A program made the position numbers and the translations under genes. A stretch of 64,000 nt of DNA from Clostridia bacterium (lineage in GTDB: Bacteria > Bacillota > Clostridia > JAAYHZ01), in the NCBI GenBank assembly GCA_050950825.1, contig JBMNIH010000008.1, positions 64,001 to 128,000 on the forward strand. Reading direction: 5' to 3'. The notes below the pieces were generated by a model. It was not told where the DNA came from and ran no database searches. It saw nothing but the letters and a program-made list of their open reading frames with translations. Below, in pieces: positions 53,477 through 62,317 of this stretch (its first letter is position 1; the number at the start of each line of letters is the position of its first letter).

Positions 53477-54047
53477 CCCTTCCTTTCAAATCCGCCTTTT
53501 CGGTATCCGACTCGCAGCTTTTATGCCAATCGGCCATCACGTTATCAAAAACAGGGATCTTACTCATATGTTGAAGCAGGCTTTTGGCAGCAACCCCGGT
53601 GATGACGCCGGTGATAAGAGACGATAACAGCAAAAAAGGCAGATATCCGAATACCGCTGTCGACTTTAACATCAATGATGCGGCCAAGATCTGTCCGGTG
53701 TTGTGGGCGGCAGCGCCGCCTACGCTGATACCGATCATGGAGAAAAACATCGGATAACCGAATCTCAGCAAAATCATAACCGTAAGAGCCAGCATGCCGC
53801 CGGTCAGTGAAAAAATCAAAGATGTGAGACTTCCGAATAACAAAGAAACGACGATGCAGCGTACAAGAGTGATAAAAAAACTCGATTGTATGCCTAAACA
53901 GAAAAGTGCAAACAAGGTGACAATATTCGCCAAACCTAATTTGATACCCGGTAACGGAATAAACACGTCAAGAGGAATCATCCGTTCAAAATAGGATATA
54001 ACGATCGCCATGGCTATTAATATTCCGTTTATGACCATCTTTCTCAT
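53451..54047 (-). CDS. EetB / Gx transporter family membrane protein
   Basis: PG.KLGLAN, SL.GG, S..GAAAHNTGQ. Confidence 0.88.
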   Translation of the reverse strand: MRKMVINGILIAMAIVISYFERMIPLDVFIPLPGIKLGLANIVTLFALFCLGIQSSFFITLVRCIVVSLLFGSLTSLIFSLTGGMLALTVMILLRFGYPMFFSMIGISVGGAAAHNTGQILAASLMLKSTAVFGYLPFLLLSSLITGVITGVAAKSLLQHMSKIPVFDNVMADWHKSCESDTEKADLKGRDGHYASNR

Positions 54048-54070
54048 ATATTCTTTACCCTCGATATCCG

Positions 54071-54451
54071 TCAGCGAATGACGATATCGGTATCATCCTC
54101 AGCGCTTCCTATGATATTAATAATTACACCTGCCGGTACGCAAACCGCCGTTTGACCGGGCCGACTGATTCTGCCCATCTTTTCACAAATACGGTCCGGG
54201 CAGTCGGACCGTTCAAAACGAATGGTTCTTTCTTCCGCTATAATGATGTTATTATATTTCCCTTTTAATTCAATAATAATCGGCTCGTCAACCTGATCAA
54301 GATCTATGGTCCGGATCACTTCCCCGTCTCGAATTATTTGAGCGACGGCATGTCCTGCTCCGGTACGGATTCGAAATGAGGCAAATATGGCCACAGAGAT
54401 ACAAATGATGACGGCAAATATTAAAATATCTCCCGGTTTAAGCTTCTTCAT
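54071..54451 (-). CDS. EetA / NusG domain II-containing membrane-anchored protein
   Basis: GD + TM helix, SDCPDRIC...G.I..PGQ..VCVP. Confidence 0.88.
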   Translation of the reverse strand: MKKLKPGDILIFAVIICISVAIFASFRIRTGAGHAVAQIIRDGEVIRTIDLDQVDEPIIIELKGKYNNIIIAEERTIRFERSDCPDRICEKMGRISRPGQTAVCVPAGVIINIIGSAEDDTDIVIR

Positions 54452-54601: not shown

Positions 54602-54666
54602 TAAATTGAAAAAAGCCGCTATTTACCGAATTACATGCCTTGATTGAAAAAGTAAAGTCCACTTTG

Positions 54667-56058
54667 GTTATAGTCTTAAGTAGTGGTGTAAATTTCGTGG
54701 AGTATGCTTGACAAGAGTAACCACCATATGATTTTTACTTTATTAGATTCAAACAAAAAAGATAAAGTAAAGGAGGTCATACCGTGGCTACTAAAAATAG
54801 AATGTCACTTTTAGAGCAACTTAGCAAGTATGTTGTTGAAAAAGATAAGGATTTTTTAAAGGAAGCGCTTACGCTGTTAATCAATGCTCTGATGGATGCG
54901 GAAGTTACGTCGATGATCGGTGCGGAAAAGTATGAACGAAGTGAGAATCGGAACAATCATCGTAATGGATACCGACAAAGAGAATGGGATACTCGCCTTG
55001 GTACGTTACAGTTAAGCATACCCAAATTGAGGCATGGAAGCTATTTCCCAAGTTTATTAGAGCCTCGGAAGATGTCAGAAAAAGCTTTATTAAATGTGGT
55101 GCAGGAAGCTTATGTGCACGGTGTCAGCACTAGAAAAGTAGATGAGTTGGTAGAATCTCTCGGAATTAAAGGGATGGATAAAAGCGAAGTTTCCGGGATC
55201 AGCAAGCAATTGGATGGCTTTGTCACCGAGTTCAAGAACCGCATACTCGAAGGAGAATACCCTTATCTTTGGCTTGATGCTACTTTTCCTAAGGTTCGTG
55301 AAGGTGGAAGAGTATGCAGTATGGCACTTGTAATAGCCGTAGGTGTAAATCAGTCCGGTGAACGAGAGATACTAGGTTTTGATGTCGGCATGAGTGAAGA
55401 CGGAGCTTTTTGGGAAGAGTTTCTGAGAAAGCTTGTAGCAAGGGGACTTAAAGGGGTGAAGTTAGTTGTAAGTGATGCCCATGAGGGGTTAAAATCCGCC
55501 ATAAAGAAGGTTTTAACCGGGAGCACATGGCAAAGATGCCGAGTACATTTTATGCGGAACGTATTAAGCCAAGTGCCGAAGAAGTGCCAAGGAATGGTCT
55601 CCTCAATCATACGCACCATTTTTGCACAAAATGATCAGGAATCCGCAAGGGAACAGCTAAGACATGTGGTAGATGAACTGAGGGGGCGTTTTCCGAAAGC
55701 AATGGAAATCCTTGAAGCAGCCGAAGAGGATATATTGGCGTATATGGCCTTTCCCCGTGAGCATTGGATACAGATTCATTCTACGAATCCATTGGAACGG
55801 CTTAATCGTGAGATACGCCGTCGGACTGATGTTGTATGCATATTTCCTAATCGTGATGCCGTTATTCGCCTTGTAGGTACTATGCTTATGGAGCAGAACG
55901 ATGAATGGCAGGTAGGGCGGCGATACTTCAGTTTAGAATCTATGGAAAAGCTTACACAGGCTAATGGGTTTTCATTAGCTCCGATTGCTATCTTACATAA
56001 ATGAAACGAAGGGAAGATAAAGTAGAAATCATTTTACACCACTTGACAAGACACTATC
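54667..56058 (+). mobile_element. IS256-family insertion sequence
   Basis: Imperfect IRs sharing GTCTT-N4-AGTGGTGTAAA; 8-bp TSD CCACTTTG at 54659-54666 and 56059-56066. Confidence 0.92.
54784..56004 (+). CDS. IS256-family (Mutator) transposase
   Basis: RNGYR.R, GVSTRKV, WLDA, SDAH.GL, QRCRVHF.RN, STN.LERLN.EI.RR. Confidence 0.95.
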   Translation: MATKNRMSLLEQLSKYVVEKDKDFLKEALTLLINALMDAEVTSMIGAEKYERSENRNNHRNGYRQREWDTRLGTLQLSIPKLRHGSYFPSLLEPRKMSEKALLNVVQEAYVHGVSTRKVDELVESLGIKGMDKSEVSGISKQLDGFVTEFKNRILEGEYPYLWLDATFPKVREGGRVCSMALVIAVGVNQSGEREILGFDVGMSEDGAFWEEFLRKLVARGLKGVKLVVSDAHEGLKSAIKKVLTGSTWQRCRVHFMRNVLSQVPKKCQGMVSSIIRTIFAQNDQESAREQLRHVVDELRGRFPKAMEILEAAEEDILAYMAFPREHWIQIHSTNPLERLNREIRRRTDVVCIFPNRDAVIRLVGTMLMEQNDEWQVGRRYFSLESMEKLTQANGFSLAPIAILHK

Positions 56059-56317
56059 CCACTTTGCAAGGTTAAATTCCATCCATCCTAAAAAATTATT
56101 GCATAAGGTGGGATAAAATTATTCTAACAAGGAAGAATTGTTACTATGGAAGGATTTTTTCTGCAAAAAGCAAGTGAATGCTTCATTTATTACCTGTTTT
56201 TTTGCATAGCAAACAAACCGTGTTGATTTCTTCACTTTTTTGCAAAGGTAAAATCCACTACGGTTAAAAGGTAATAATTGGCAGAACGATGCCTTTCGGA
56301 TAATTATTAATACTTTA

Positions 56318-57936
56318 CTCAAACTTCGCAGTAAATTAATATAATAAATTCCTAGATAATTTAATATAAGCTTTTTAAGTAATATATGTAACTAAGCGAC
56401 TTTTGACTTGGGTAATCTTAGTTTTAAATATTCAGGAAGTCTAGAAATGAAAATTCTAAGAAACCCATTTACTCGCTTATCATCAATCATGAAATACTCC
56501 ATTAAGCATTCTGACAGTATTTCGAGAATCAGTTGTATTACTTCATCGAACTTTATGTCTTGCAATTCATCGTAGCATAAATAAAACAACTCACCTATAG
56601 TTCGATTATCCATATTGTTCCGATTTTCTATTGCCAGCATGATATACCTACTGAGGACTACTGCGGTATGAGCCGTCATCATATCATATGACAAGCCTTG
56701 AAACTCTCTACCTAAATTGAGATATGTCTTGCACATTTTATAGAAAACTTCTATATCCCAACGTTTGCCATACGTTTGAATTATTTGCTCTTCCGAAAGC
56801 GCCAAATCGGTTGAAATGATGGCTATCCATTTCTTCCTGTTATTCCGATCCCGTACGAATACAATGCGAGCATCCATAGTCTCTTCTTCTTTGTTGTGAA
56901 TGGATACGACAACCGACAAAAGGTATTTGGAACGACCACGTCTCTTTTTTTGAGAATTATAGATTTCCTTAAGGGTCATTTTCTTTCCGTTAAAGGAATA
57001 CTTGATATTAGGAGTATCTTTAAGCCGCCCGATGCTGTGAAGCTTCAACTTCGCAATGTCCATGAGTATTGCAGGATAGGAAAACCAACTGTCGAACAGC
57101 ACGTGCTTTGCAGGTATGTGTTGCTCGACTGCTTGCCGAAGCATCGCTATCATTAAATCAGGGGCTTTCTGCATGGCTTGCATTCTTCGTTTGTATCCAT
57201 TGGTGTTTTTATGGATATCATCTCTCATTTTACACAAATGTTTTTCAACTTTGCCGGATGTGAGCAAACAAAAATTAAACGGAATAAGTGTGTTGCCATC
57301 TGACCATGCAAGAGTAAGCAACCTGAATCCTTTTTTACACTTGTTGTCGGTATGATCTCTGACAAACGAAAGCATCTCTACACATTTGCTTCGTAAACGG
57401 CCGTAGAAGGTATCATCTACAACAATGACATTAATACGGTCATCCGATGTCAAATCCTTTATATGGCTGTTTATAACCGTGGATGCCAATGTCATAACAA
57501 ATGTCTGCCAGTTAATATATATAGAGTTTAGGAAACGATATACAGTATCTTTTTTAAAATCGACATTTTTGTCTCTGTTGCTGTCTTTATTTTTTATCAG
57601 GTTCATATACATACTTCTGTTTGTGAAAACCAATTGAAACAAATAGAGAAAAATTTGAATTACCGGTACACCTCTTTTTTTATAAGCATTGGCATGTTGC
57701 AGAGCTTGATAAATTTTAAACTTTCTAAAAAAAAGATTGATTCTATCGTTAAACTGCTTTTCTTCGATATAATTTTCCGGTATACTATTCATGGCAAGGA
57801 GCTCCTTCGTTGTGATATTTTGTTTGTTATGTTAATTAATATTATACCACAACCCAGGTCTCCTTGCTATACTTTTTTGCACTAAACTATTGAATTATCT
57901 AGGTTCGAACTCACTTTTTCAAGTGCGAAGTTTGAG
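56318..57936 (-). mobile_element. IS4/IS701-like DDE insertion sequence
   Basis: 13-bp perfect IRs CTCAAACTTCGCA / TGCGAAGTTTGAG; 7-bp TSD TACTTTA at 56311-56317 and 57937-57943; exact family uncertain. Confidence 0.85.
56392..57792 (-). CDS. DDE transposase (IS4 superfamily)
   Basis: VDDT, LFDSWF, Y..RW.IE.F.K (YREK-like). Confidence 0.9.
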   Translation of the reverse strand: MNSIPENYIEEKQFNDRINLFFRKFKIYQALQHANAYKKRGVPVIQIFLYLFQLVFTNRSMYMNLIKNKDSNRDKNVDFKKDTVYRFLNSIYINWQTFVMTLASTVINSHIKDLTSDDRINVIVVDDTFYGRLRSKCVEMLSFVRDHTDNKCKKGFRLLTLAWSDGNTLIPFNFCLLTSGKVEKHLCKMRDDIHKNTNGYKRRMQAMQKAPDLMIAMLRQAVEQHIPAKHVLFDSWFSYPAILMDIAKLKLHSIGRLKDTPNIKYSFNGKKMTLKEIYNSQKKRRGRSKYLLSVVVSIHNKEEETMDARIVFVRDRNNRKKWIAIISTDLALSEEQIIQTYGKRWDIEVFYKMCKTYLNLGREFQGLSYDMMTAHTAVVLSRYIMLAIENRNNMDNRTIGELFYLCYDELQDIKFDEVIQLILEILSECLMEYFMIDDKRVNGFLRIFISRLPEYLKLRLPKSKVA

Positions 57937-59233
57937 TACTTTAATAAATCGGGATTCAAACAAATATTATTCGGTTCAATGAGTTTGGATCCCAATTTTT
58001 TTATTACTTCTTCACCAAACATAAATTTAAACACTTCATGAGGAGTTCTATCATTTAAAGATAATCCGGAGTAAGAATTTATGTGGTTCATTACAAGATT
58101 AATATCTTCCTGCACGAGATTATCGAAGCTTGTTCCTTTCGGTAAGATCTTCCTCAGTTCCCCGTGATTTTTTTCTTGTGATGCCCTTTGATAAGCTGAA
58201 TACGAATCGCAATAAAAGACCTTAGTTCTAACTTCTCCGGTTACTCGGTAGTATTCAATCGCTTTCGGGTTCGTAAATTCACTGCCCTTGTCAGCCAAAA
58301 GTATGGGAAACAGTTTTCGAAACGTGTCAAGACCCAAAAGCTCTGTCAGTTTGTCGAAAACATCGATTACCGATTGCGAATCGTTCGAGTCTCGTAAAAA
58401 TGCAAGCATAAATTCGGTTTTAACAAAATGCAACGTCATCAGCACTTTACCGCCTTTTGTACCAAGCACCGAATCCATTTCCACGACGAAAGGAGCATTA
58501 ACATCTGCCATCACTTTTTTGTAATCATCATACGTGCGTCCCTATTCGGCATTCGCGATCCACTTTATGAGTTACGCCCGGTTTTTTGCGAGATCGATAT
58601 CTTACTTTTCTGGGCATATCAATATTACGAGCCGTGAAGAGGCCGTAGTCAACGTAATTGTATAACGTCCTTTCGCTGTACATAATTTTATCGGCATTGT
58701 TTACGCAAATATGATGAATGGACTGGCCTTTTTTCAGAAGAGGTGATATCACGGTATCCAATTGTTGCAACGATTTTTCATCGATTGCCACACCGGAACG
58801 TGATTCCGAACGTGTATATTCATATTCTTTGTCTGCAACTTTAGCGTCGTATATCATTTTTTGCAATGAGCACTTGCGTTTTGTCGAGCATCCGTTACAT
58901 ACGTAAGGCGGTTTTTCGAGAGCATCACACTTCTGTTCTACGAAAGCATCACAGAAGTCATTGCACAGTCTGCATATGCTACAGATCCCTTTTTCGCAAA
59001 CTCCGCTTTTTTTACATAGCGAACGTTTATGACAACCGATCCTGTACTTACATGCATTGTACGATTGGCCCGAAAGCACCTGTCTTTCGTTCTACCCGAT
59101 GTCGACGAACTTCTTTGGATATTGTCGTGCAATCTTTACCGAGTATTTTACCGATTTCCTTAAAAGATTTTCCCTCCTTCAATAAGTTTTCGATATCTTT
59201 CCTGTCTGATAACGTCAAATGAGTTGACATCAT
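57882..59233 (-). pseudogene. IS30-family transposase with a Cys-rich insert, split by two +1 frameshifts
   Basis: HLTLSDR..IE HTH, PPYVCNGC, EMDSV, DKGSEF, EKNH..LR.ILPKG.SF; extra G near 59069 and near 58540; could be sequencing errors. Confidence 0.85.
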
Positions 59234-59780
59234 TATGGTTCTCCTTTCAAAATCATTTTGAAAGACATCGTTCTTTTTTAATGATTGCACTGATATCGGT
59301 AAGTAATACATGTTTTGTTAGTTTTTAGTTTTAGATCATGACAAAAGTCCATCCGGTTAAAAAGACAAGCAATGGCCTTTTGCGGCATAAACGGCCTACT
59401 TCCCGGCAAAGCCGGGTCCCTTCCATTTATTCCACAGTGCCATGCTTTTCTTTTTTCGCCATGCTTTTGAACATATACCGAGGGATGAAGAGGAGATGCA
59501 AGCGACCAATTTCTCAACGTCCCCCTCGTCTTTTATATCGTAGCATGGCGAACACCGTATTACTTTTATATTTGTTTAGGTAATGATAGTCTCAGGAATC
59601 AGCTAAAAATGCATGCTTTCTTTACTAGTAATTTTTTGTATTTGCGTTTGCATTAGTAAAGTCCACAATATTTTTATTAATATTTTTGCAAAAGTAAAAT
59701 CAACTGCAGCTTTCGAAGGGTGGACTTTACTTTTTCGATTAAAGACCGAATTACATGCCTTGAATTTTGAAAAAAGGGTG

Positions 59781-59810
59781 TTGACAAAAAGGATAGCCTG
59801 CTTGTATAAT
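59781..59810 (+). promoter_or_regulatory. Sigma-A promoter of tRNA-Gly/tRNA-Arg
   Basis: TTGACA...TATAAT consensus hexamers just upstream of tRNA-Gly. Confidence 0.8.
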
Positions 59811-59827
59811 GTAAAAGTCCGAAAAAC

Positions 59828-59901
59828 GCGGGTGTAGTTCAATGGTAGAACATCAGCCTTCCAAGCTGATTGCGAGGGTTCGATTCCCTTCACCCGCTCC
59901 A
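59828..59901 (+). tRNA. tRNA-Gly (TCC)
   Basis: GCGGGTGTAGTTCAATGGTAGAAC..TCAGC CTTCCAA GCTGA..GTTCGA..CCA. Confidence 0.97.
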
Positions 59902-59914
59902 TAATCAACCACAT

Positions 59915-59991
<77 letters not shown>

Positions 59992-60166: not shown

Positions 60167-60570
60167 TTACATAGCTGCTATTAATCTTTGAACTCCCACC
60201 ATATTAATCGCTCTACGCATGTTATAGGCAAGAAAACACAACCCAAGTTCTGCCGTGATTTTTTCTTTTCCATGACATAAGACATAGTGGCTTAAATTAT
60301 GCCATTTTATTGTACCAAATTGATGCTCCGAATGGCACATTCGCTTTTTTCTCATTTCATCCGTATACTTCATTCAGATAAGGACTTTTTTGTGACTTGT
60401 CTTCTTAAAGTTGTTCGGGAGCTTTTCGCCTTCCGGCATGAGTTGCAATGGACGCTCCTTGCATGAATTCATTCTTATGGGAGCATACTTTGCTTTTGGT
60501 CCAAACGCGGCAACCATGAACCCGGATTACGTACACTTGTTGGTACAAAATCGACAAGCCGCCTTACTCG
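60167..60570 (-). pseudogene. IS1182-like transposase C-terminal remnant
   Basis: EH.FGTIKW...GKEK..AELGL.FLAYN.RRAIN, with an upstream ACRFCTNKCT fragment; broken frames. Confidence 0.7.
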
Positions 60571-61407
60571 CTTCATAAGGTGGTTGGAGAAAATCAATAA
60601 TTAATTTAACAACATCGGTAAAGTCAAGTTTATATTGCAGTATTTTTTTACAAAAATTGCCCCATCTTCTTATAATAATAGACTCATCAGCTAACCTTAA
60701 AATAATAGTGACAGAATCTTTTTCATAAGGTGTGCCCCGGTTAGTAAGGGTTTCATAAATAGCTTCCTGTAATTTACGTCCATCGAAATTAAAGGTTGTT
60801 GCCATATAATATATATCAAAGAAGTCTTTCATCCTGCTTGTAGCTTCCATTAGTGATATGATAGCATCTAATTTTTCTGCCACTGTGGATTCCAATGAAT
60901 AAGTCAGAATCTTAGGTTCCTCAAATTCTGGAAGTAATACCGGTAAAGTTCGTTCAACTGGCGAAGGTACTACAACATCACCAACTCCCAAGTCTATACT
61001 AAAAGGGATCTTAACCCTTCCAATAGACCCCATGAGGTAAATTCTAATACCATGGTATTTCTTTATCTCTCTGATAGTTTCTATCCTTCTAATCTCAAAC
61101 TGTATAAAATTATTTTTGCCAGTTGAGGAAATAATATTTTTTTAACAAGCTTTTCTACTGCATCCATATCGTTAGGATAATTTCTTAAAAGATAATCTGC
61201 ATCAACTGTTGGTCTTGCGGCAAATCCACTGATTGAATATAATAAAAAGCCGCCTTTAAGAATAACTTTTTCTTTGTAATCACTTTCTGAAAGTCTTCGA
61301 ATAAATTCCTCCTGGCAAAATAGATTTAGGAGCTGTTGTAATGGAATACCTTGTTCTTTTGATTTGTTTTTAAGTCTCGCTATGACTGAAGCTTCAATAT
61401 TTCCCAT
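60527..61407 (-). pseudogene. AbiEii nucleotidyltransferase toxin, frameshifted and 3'-truncated
   Basis: ILKGG..., RPTVDAD, AEKL.A, SRMKDFFD; frame break at the A7 run 61137-61143; C-terminus fused to the IS remnant. Confidence 0.85.
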
Positions 61408-62003
61408 TATAACCACATCCCTATACGAGTTTGCACTTTATTCTTAATATTAAATATTTCTGCATACTCAAACAGCTTTCTTATGTTTTTCTTCGAATCC
61501 TCTATATAACGGCCAATAGCATTATAAAATACTTCTTTCTCCAGTTTTTTCTCATAACGGAGGACATCGCAAATTGTGCGATCTCTGTTGTATATCTTTA
61601 TTTCAATGCCATCTATCTCTATTATATCTACACCAATGTCTAAAAACTTTGGTTCAAGATAGTAAGGTTCTATTAGAGGATAATCAATTCTATACTGAGT
61701 TGTTTTACTATATCTATCCACAGCAATTTGCCATGCCGGCGGTATGCGGTCTGTGTAGTCATAATGGAATAAGGCACTTTCAAGAAATATAACTGCTCGC
61801 GGAAATAAACGTGCAATAATTACCTCTTTACGAATAACATAATCTGTAAGTTCATAAAAACCGCGTTTAGCCTTTGTAATAATCCCTTCATTTAGAAGTC
61901 TTTTTATCTGGCGACTCGAAAGTCCTAAATCTTTAAGCTCTACAGTTTTTAAGATTCCCCCGCATCTTTGAAATTCCTTCTTCAAAATATCAATTTGTAT
62001 CAT
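61407..62003 (-). CDS. AbiEi type IV toxin-antitoxin antitoxin
   Basis: Winged-HTH with RG.Y, LESAL..Y..TD..P, IY..DRTICD; ATG at 62003 with RBS GAGGTG. Confidence 0.88.
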   Translation of the reverse strand: MIQIDILKKEFQRCGGILKTVELKDLGLSSRQIKRLLNEGIITKAKRGFYELTDYVIRKEVIIARLFPRAVIFLESALFHYDYTDRIPPAWQIAVDRYSKTTQYRIDYPLIEPYYLEPKFLDIGVDIIEIDGIEIKIYNRDRTICDVLRYEKKLEKEVFYNAIGRYIEDSKKNIRKLFEYAEIFNIKNKVQTRIGMWL

Positions 62004-62317
62004 TTTGCACCTCTCGGCCTGCATTTGTTTTTCGATGCAGTCTTTTAAGTGCATTATACCATATTATTACTATTAAATAATGATCTGCTTTTTATGCGGG
62101 TTTAATCAAATAAGTAATATAAGTTATAAAGATATATAAGCAAATATCTACCAATTACATTTCCGGAAATCGTGTAGAAACCTCTGTTATAAAAATTATT
62201 AGAAACGGCTTCTATGTCTATACTAACAAATTATATTTAGGTGATCCGTTGGTTTTACAATAAATGAAATAATGTGAAATACAGTAGCATCAAGGGTTCT
62301 GATGTGCAGAACCTCCT

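Follow-up and report, generated by a model that had tools for sequence, protein, structure and literature searches.

We analysed a 64,000-nucleotide (nt) stretch of a Clostridia bacterium genome (contig JBMNIH010000008.1); this whole stretch is called the window, and coordinates are those of the window unless another record is named. Here, the non-coding arm upstream of an IS30-family transposase gene carries a two-domain structured element. Judged from its sequence covariation, this element is a new, unnamed and strongly covarying family, and its 3′ hairpin recurs beside transposases of several insertion sequence (IS) families, on plasmids and on integrative and conjugative elements (ICEs). 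The reading that we favour, at a probability of about 0.4, is that the segment is a portable signal in single-stranded DNA for priming or transcription by RNA polymerase.

The segment had been marked at 59370-59556 in an initial annotation as a GC-rich RNA candidate of the IS. The stems named there are all present: the CCCGGC hairpin CCCGGCAAAGCCGGG at 59402-59416; an 11-bp stem that pairs TTCGCCATGCT at 59455-59465 with AGCATGGCGAA at 59542-59552; an inner stem of CGAGGGATG at 59479-59487 with CGTCCCCCTCG at 59518-59528, which encloses a GAGA/TCTC stem; and a second GCCATGCT at 59440-59447. The 187-nt span folds at -61.6 kcal/mol (z -4.78) on the plus strand and at -70.6 kcal/mol (z -4.09) on the minus strand, none of 200 shuffles being equally good in either case. 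GC content is 47.7% in 59348-59563 and 28% elsewhere in the arm. The annotated span is thus real, but the conserved unit is larger: a closing helix (P0) joins two domains in a three-way junction, and a further conserved block precedes it (Table 1). This block probably forms a small hairpin, judging its pairing by eye. Domain 1 corresponds to the 11-bp stem plus its inner stem; the outer stem is 99.2% paired, with compensatory changes in 5 of 10 pairs, and the inner stem is 87.9% paired. Domain 2 is the core hairpin of the family. Its outer helix (P1) has about 20 bp, its P2-P3 helix holds two invariant U.G pairs, and the tip (CGUGGAAUAAAUGG / CCGUUUAUGCCGCGAAAG, which includes these two pairs) hardly varies between phyla. 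Two pairings proposed at first have to be redrawn. The two GGCC words are not partners of each other, and 59372-59376 pairs with 59439-59443 in P1. The second GCCATGCT, thought to compete for a strand of the 11-bp stem, is the 5′ arm of P1 and covaries with its own partner, so that competition for that strand is not a conserved feature. At 59524-59525, two additional C residues distinguish the window copy from the other two genomic copies, which read CGTCCCTCG there; the same two residues are missing in one contig from a metatranscriptome library and in one from a library that is probably DNA.

A 13-row alignment (A4) was composed of the window, the related locus L024 and eleven sequences from metagenomes and from a second genomic copy, with a mean column identity of 64%. 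Over its 59 pairs, 94.1% of the cells are paired, as compared with 83.4% in shuffles, and 28 pairs change on both sides, as compared with 13.9. The covariation score is 0.316 against 0.128 (reached in 0 of 500 shuffles), and slid controls do not exceed 0.078. The fold is therefore conserved among homologues, a point on which the initial annotation had made its proposal depend. Even between the window and L024 alone, both the 11-bp stem and the stem that surrounds the CCCGGC hairpin show compensatory changes. The strand, which had been considered impossible to determine, can be assigned from the same data. G.U cells outnumber A.C cells by 42:9 in A4 (16:9 after removal of the two invariant pairs) and by 325:57 in the larger family alignment A3 described below (91:56 in the variable helices alone). 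Because of this excess and of the two invariant U.G pairs, the folding strand is, on comparative grounds, the minus strand of the window, which is the transposase sense strand.

The core hairpin was found far beyond this IS. An exact two-block pattern taken from P3 occurs on at least 120 metagenome contigs (130 matches among the matches listed), while less than one match would be expected by chance on a rough estimate. According to contig and record names, the sources are soil, marine, freshwater and reactor samples; five plasmid records also contain family matches. The matches share the arrangement ...CG UGG A AUAAAUGG - internal loop - variable hairpin - CCGUUUAU G CC GCG AAAG..., within an outer helix that covaries and frequently ends in GUCAA/UUGAC. 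In A3, comprising 117 distinct sequences, 89.5% of the cells are paired (78.2% when shuffled), the covariation score is 0.265 (0.089 when shuffled), and double changes occur in 10 of 10 P1 pairs and 5 of 5 P4 pairs. A covariance model, R1, was built on A3. The P4 loops are frequently C-GNA-G or CTTG, and loops of these types are stable in DNA.

Some metagenome loci (such as L099, L131, L142 and L186) carry a short motif without the internal loop, after which come a conserved GTAGCGA...ACGCT and a hairpin of GGGGATGG...ATCCCC. These are often near IS21 istB, IS110 or Mob_Pre genes and seem, from their sequences, to be a distinct sub-family. On the 3′ side of the internal loop (minus strand, 59394-59404 in the window), most family members have GGAGG 6-9 nt before an AUG in P3, which resembles a Shine-Dalgarno sequence and a start codon. 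The window copy reads GUAGG. As the short class lacks the GGAGG, we interpret it as belonging to a purine-rich loop rather than to a start site. A protein-coding reading of the arm (a 79-aa open reading frame (ORF) at 59278-59517, or a short ORF from the AUG in P3) was rejected, as two 1-nt indels separate the window from L024 and the remaining differences are only non-synonymous; the absence of a convincing ORF noted earlier is thereby upheld.

Covariance models of known RNAs did not recognise the element. Rfam 15 gave no match in 59234-59744 at E values up to 10, none at the motif in 18 loci at the gathering score, and none in six ICE-type loci at E values up to 1. Hence, the Rfam comparison suggested in the initial annotation gives no relative, and by this measure the element does not belong to the IS200/605 omega RNAs, HEARO or other Rfam families.

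We then investigated the genomic contexts of the core hairpin. Pfam neighbour scans covered 30 hand-picked ORFs and the first 150 of 498 candidates (36 loci, L099-L134). In the latter loci, the hairpin lies antisense to a gene and at most 180 nt upstream of its start codon in 13 instances (12 loci). The genes encode RadC (five), DUF932 (three), N6_N4_Mtase (three), DUF3560 and ParB_N proteins. A sense-upstream hairpin was found in one case (AbiEii). In annotated plasmids of Eleftheria and Curtobacterium, the placement is the same, and the hairpin heads minus-strand genes or operons. Other neighbours handle single-stranded DNA: Mob_Pre, Zot, TopB and a RecD-like helicase. When 240-nt regions of seven ICE-type instances were folded, the hairpin extended to about 200 nt. 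Its 3′ arm contains TTGACn and, after 15 nt, TAGGCT preceded by TG, and pairs with the 5′ arm; about 95 nt from the core, the 5′ flank contains a ribosome-binding site (RBS) and ATG in reverse complement. Of 115 distinct instances, 25 have the pattern TTGAY-N12-15-TGnTAnnnT, with -35 and extended -10 boxes, on the 3′ arm, as compared with none expected from shuffles and none on the mirror side, and 22 of these 25 have a reverse-complement RBS and start codon in the 5′ flank. In the F plasmid (48000-70000, searched with filters off), R1 found one significant site, at 53980-54085 on the minus strand (39 bits, E 1.3e-10); the DNA methylase gene of the leading region has its RBS and ATG in the 5′ flank of this site. 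A partial 3′ half of the core, CCGGTTATGCCGCAAAAG, was also seen between the DUF932 gene and oriT of F (NC_002483 65517-65537; L225 17518-17538, minus strand), where R1 scores 6 bits.

These plasmid members look like single-strand promoters when compared with Frpo. Masai and Arai are said to have described, in 1997, the Frpo and ssi single-strand promoters of F and ColIb-P9. In the published accounts, as far as the excerpts used here go, the transferred template strand of Frpo forms a hairpin that rebuilds -35 and -10 boxes and drives the leading genes ahead of second-strand synthesis (PMC11541004; PMC9849209, Couturier et al. 2023). The plasmid and ICE class likewise places a template-strand hairpin directly upstream of leading genes, with the boxes within the stem, and has one member in the F leading region itself; the template-strand position holds for 13 antisense instances against one sense instance and for F. 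There are also differences. The F match lies upstream of the methylase gene, R1 does not match Frpo1, which precedes ygeA, or Frpo2, which precedes ssb, and the invariant tip motif is absent from the published description in the part considered (PMC9849209). The IS-borne form differs further from Frpo by its second domain, by the lack of a -10 box and by its opposite orientation to the adjacent gene, so that the window element is not on a template strand.

Beside transposase genes, the hairpin is on the gene's own strand. It follows the ORF in ISNCY (L138, L144, L150, L167 and L179; NF033594 429.7 bits, cut-off 250), in ISLre2 (L101, L192, L226 and L231) and at an IS256 transposase (L227), an IS21-like operon (L215), an IS110 transposase (L201) and an IS3-type ORF (L099). 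It precedes the ORF in the IS30 type, namely in the window, L211 (= L024) and L139; IS30-type transposases occur in 3 of the 120 metagenome loci, among the matches listed. The spacing to the ORF is 70-110 nt where the hairpin precedes it and roughly 10-460 nt where the hairpin follows. The full two-domain form is found in the IS30, ISNCY, ISLre2, IS21-like and DUF1670 contexts. L150 and L179 are 82% identical over 1.9 kb, and together with the inverted repeats this puts the two-domain form inside an ISNCY element. A comparison of L101 with L192 and their inverted repeats puts it inside an ISLre2 element in the same way. The two-domain element lies beside the IS21-like operon, and the IS256 context (L227) has the core hairpin alone. 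T-runs follow the element in L150 and L179.

We suggest, on the basis of these comparisons, that the IS-borne module may act as single-stranded DNA whose fold is recognised by the RNA polymerase (or primase) of the host. Recognition would take place when the transposase-sense strand is single-stranded, and RNA or complementary-strand synthesis would begin at the module. The single strand could arise as the strand displaced in copy-out replication or by conjugative transfer. A universal host machine, with RNA polymerase as the candidate, is suggested because the tip is invariant across phyla and a -35-like UUGA is retained in the IS-type P1 (pairs 216-218/292-294 are unchanged in 10-13 of the 13 rows of A4); RNA polymerase is also what the plasmid class suggests. 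The Mob_Pre, Zot, TopB and RecD-like helicase neighbours fit a role in single-stranded DNA. Priming on the displaced sense strand would, in addition, explain the fixed orientation of the module relative to the transposase. In IS30, IS256, IS21 and IS3, a figure-eight is turned into a double-stranded circle by host replication, according to the sections of two reviewed sources (PMC3299598; PMC7780238).

Several points weigh against this single-strand DNA reading. In the ISs, it is the sense strand of the transposase that folds, opposite to the situation on plasmids, and therefore such a promoter would not drive the transposase. The window has TTGCTT at the place equivalent to -35, but no -10 box follows the -35-like word either there or in the two-domain homologues, and a scan of the minus strand of the arm yielded neither a sigma-70 promoter nor a terminator. 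The sense orientation, seen in 13 of 13 IS-borne cases examined, fits a co-transcribed RNA equally well. In three soil IS21 cases (L099, L131 and L142), the hairpin lies beyond istB on the other strand. The invariance of P3 in A3 is imposed by the pattern-based search through which the sample was collected. Finally, we know of no copy-out use by ISNCY or ISLre2. It is doubtful that a bolder version of the proposal holds, in which several DDE IS families would carry a single-strand origin, comparable to those of rolling-circle plasmids, filamentous phages and conjugative T-strands, that recruits RNA polymerase or primase, and the same tip would be an unnamed, phylum-spanning core of single-strand promoters that includes a third F site. 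If the core hairpin is a general single-strand DNA signal, early-expressed genes for anti-defence and establishment could be searched for by it well beyond enterobacterial plasmids; such sites have so far been recognised only through their resemblance to a few sequences of F and ColIb. Insertion sequences would then also contain a signal for host replication or priming.

As the chief alternative, the segment possibly acts as a cis-acting RNA, in the 5′ leader (IS30 type) or the 3′ trailer (ISNCY, ISLre2 and IS256 type) of the transposase mRNA, where it could insulate against read-through, stabilise the message or gate translation. The constant sense orientation at 70-110 nt before or about 10-460 nt after the ORF, the U.G pairs and the T-runs in L150 and L179 would all suit an RNA, and in the cited part of the work on pLS20, EGeRS1 offers an analogy, since it blocks read-through only in its native orientation (PMC8708921). 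The element sequence recurs in anaerobic-digester, biogas and bioreactor metagenomes, and three metatranscriptome runs from two studies gave short contigs at about 2x coverage over 59439-59592, 59127-59350 and 59174-59328. However, these contigs show neither strand nor ends nor whether the template was RNA or DNA, and we give no weight to the contig gaps or to the coincidence of the contig end at 59350 with the 3′ end of the fold. The same near-invariant core is antisense to the plasmid genes, where there is no promoter room for an RNA from that strand; the P4 loops are often of the DNA-stable types; and the arm scan described above offers neither promoter nor terminator. Should the RNA reading nevertheless be correct, a 210-290-nt fold common to IS30, ISNCY and ISLre2 would define a new class of structured RNAs carried by transposons. 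A trans-acting small RNA of many mobile elements, for example a 6S-like decoy of RNA polymerase or an anti-defence decoy, seems quite improbable. Such a role could account for a widespread and highly conserved fold on mobile elements, and ISPpu9 has an optional small-RNA module downstream of its transposase, as stated in the portion of that report used here (10.1101/2025.01.17.633520), but no promoter or terminator delimits a gene, the antisense-upstream placement in plasmids leaves no space for a promoter, and Rfam contains no relative.

The segment might also be a passenger without a role for the IS, namely a fragment from the leading region of a plasmid or ICE, or else a selfish cassette, that was acquired by recombination. 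The module is sporadic (upstream in 1 of 80 related IS30-family loci), appears in many unrelated contexts, and all three of its genomic copies are in elements already broken by other ISs. We nevertheless regard this as unlikely: the module was captured independently or retained in at least three IS families in a single orientation, covaries fully over 59 pairs at a mean column identity of 64%, and has no solo copies in this genome. The last point also disposes of the suggestion that the segment is an inserted miniature inverted-repeat transposable element, as the 3.55-Mb genome contains the segment only within the three IS copies. The role first proposed, a guide or cofactor RNA of the IS30 transposase, is hardly credible. 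Bridge and omega RNAs are specific to DEDD or TnpB/IscB proteins, and their loops are complementary to target and donor. Like the bridge (seeker) RNAs of IS110/IS1111 and the omega RNAs of IS200/605, the element is structured, conserved and non-coding, and lies in the long end beside a recombinase gene. Unlike them, it travels with unrelated DDE transposases of several families, the transposase in the window being of the IS30 family and not DEDD, and 79 of 80 relatives lack it upstream. The three copies with near-identical elements have unrelated 13-bp targets, and the longest Watson-Crick runs to the empty sites (8, 7 and 9 nt) were matched by 86, 167 and 25 of 200 shuffles, which is chance level. 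For the IS ends, the runs are 8 nt long, and 40 and 63 of 200 shuffles matched them. The variable helices are self-paired, and the same element occurs in ISs with different ends, contrary to loops that would covary with targets.

Three further systems invite comparison. EGeRS1 of pLS20 is described, in the section available (Val-Calvo et al. 2021, PMC8708921), as a GC-rich branched structure of about 325 nt. Like the window element, it is GC-rich, multi-branched, about 300 nt long, set in AT-rich surroundings and sense-oriented upstream of genes, with no promoter in double-stranded DNA and a location on the transferred non-template strand. Neither R1 nor nhmmer found a match in bases 1-50000 of the 65774 of pLS20 (NC_015148). 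The radC (RF01754) and STAXI (RF01728) motifs lie, as far as the consulted text of Weinberg et al. 2010 states (PMC2864571), beside radC, ssb, topoisomerase, antirestriction and integrase genes, and a single-strand DNA role is discussed there for STAXI. The mobile-DNA neighbourhoods are similar, but neither Rfam model matches, even at E values up to 1 on six ICE-type loci. The family members near Mob_Pre and Zot genes can be likened, by description, to the single-strand origins (sso) of rolling-circle plasmids and the minus-strand origins of filamentous phages. These are orientation-dependent hairpins at which RNA polymerase primes the complementary strand. Our literature search found no description of a structured element common to IS30, ISNCY, ISLre2 or IS256, nor of the core motif, in a set that did not cover the supplementary lists of Frpo candidates, which might include the motif.

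Table 1. Positions of the structured element and of its carrier IS in the window
Feature	Position	Strand	Remarks
Two-domain element closed by P0, three-way junction, ~210 nt	59351..59560	-	P0 59554-59560/59351-59357
Domain 1 hairpin, 96 nt	59456..59551	-	outer stem 59542-59551/59456-59465; inner stem 59520-59528/59479-59485
Domain 2, core hairpin (3′ hairpin, model R1)	59349..59462	-	87.7 bits, E 8.7e-25
Domain 2 helices	P1 59439-59455/59359-59376; P2-P3 59423-59436/59381-59394; P4 59412-59416/59402-59406		
Conserved 5′ block	59589..59617	-	GCUUGCUUUUUUAGCUGAUUCCUGAGGCAA in homologues; conserved columns in A4
Non-coding arm, 510 nt	between 59233 and 59744		from the minus-strand transposase ATG (59233) to the element end (59744)
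IS30-family transposase gene	57937..59233	-	HTH_38 E 1.3e-16
Terminal inverted repeat, transposase-proximal end	59718..59744		end common to three copies; reverse complement of left end
Left (transposase-distal) end of IS30-family element	54638..54666		separated from the remainder by the nested IS256-family element
13-bp target duplication	54625..54637 and 59745..59757		ACCGAATTACATG
Two internal reversed copies of inverted-repeat motif AGTAAA(G/A)TC(C/A)AC	59645-59665, 59685-59704		between terminal inverted repeat and structured element
Nested IS256-family element, 1392 bp	54667..56058	+	Transposase_mut E 3.5e-137; at least 6 more genomic copies
Nested DDE_5 / DDE_Tnp_1 (IS4-like) element, 1621 bp	56317..57937	-	3 more copies

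The carrier is assigned to the IS30 family by its predicted helix-turn-helix and DDE transposase. The IS30 model NF033563 scores 75.6 bits on the truncated C-terminal fragment of the window transposase and 93.2 bits (cut-off 80) on P0002, its closest full-length homologue. Unbroken, the IS would be about 2.08 kb long with inverted repeats of about 25 bp. In the window copy, single extra bases at 59071 and 58542 break the transposase frame, and a nested IS has removed the last codons. Two further copies are present in the genome, both on contig C2, with arms 99% identical to that of the window and with those two extra bases lacking. Each has its own duplication and is interrupted by another IS at a different site. 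The structured element is common to all three copies, each flanked by its own 12-13-bp target duplication, which confirms that it is carried by the IS. The window copy and C2B have duplications of 13 bp; that of C2A measures 12-13 bp, its border with the inverted repeat being ambiguous. Target duplications of IS30 are usually 2-3 bp, long ones being known for IS1630; those of this element are atypically long. All three copies are broken by other ISs (IS256-family, DDE_5-type, and IS3-like with orfA), and none in the genome looks, from its sequence, capable of autonomous movement.

The ends of the element show some variation. The outermost 8-10 bases at the transposase-proximal end vary among the otherwise 99%-identical copies: C2 copy A (L018) ends in ...TTTTTCAAATGAGCAG, and the other two copies in ...TTTTTCGATTAAAG (window 59730-59744). 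The target in the window runs on with CCTTGA, which is similar to the element's own end. Words like the inverted repeat, AGTAAA(G/A)TC(C/A)AC, recur within both arms (59645-59704; 56241-59259), and L024 (1-110) shows an equal layout of the internal reversed motifs. They may be extra transposase-binding sites or the remnant of a nested end.

The distribution of the segment among relatives of the carrier is narrow. The window transposase family comprises 595 proteins at E <= 1e-10 among 1245 candidates, and the best 80 of 587 confirmed genomic loci were examined. In 45 of 79 scorable loci, the 5′ arm is just 80-160 nt by automatic inverted-repeat calls, which are crude (best 22-mer match) and include several chance matches. 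The upstream structured segment was found in one of the 80, L024 (nhmmer E 3.1e-29, 75% identity), and the long arm is thus not a trait of the family. A divergent core lies downstream of an IS30-family transposase in three loci (L049, L034 and L026; 43-46 bits with R1), which keep CGUGGAAUA...UAUGCCGCGAAAG and have the inner part replaced. In the genome that holds the window, R1 matches only the three IS copies. Among 150 other genomes of the class, 5 have R1 matches, in a scan with stricter filters and at most 24 candidates scored per genome; in two other genomes related at the family level, the arm is absent. On the metagenome contig L216 (about 1554-1880, in motif orientation), a two-domain element directly follows the apparent right inverted repeat of an IS30-family element, and is thus outside the IS, unlike in the window.

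The end of the IS lies about 36 bp upstream of the -35 box of a tRNA promoter, which is about 23 bp past the 13-bp duplication. This is a perfect sigma-70 promoter (TTGACA, 18 nt, TATAAT) heading tRNA-Gly(TCC) and tRNA-Arg(TCT) at 59781-59991. Further on, the minus strand of 60527-62054 carries an AbiEi antitoxin gene and, after it, a gene for an AbiEii nucleotidyltransferase toxin, the second gene being split between two ORFs (61081-61416 and 60527-61033).

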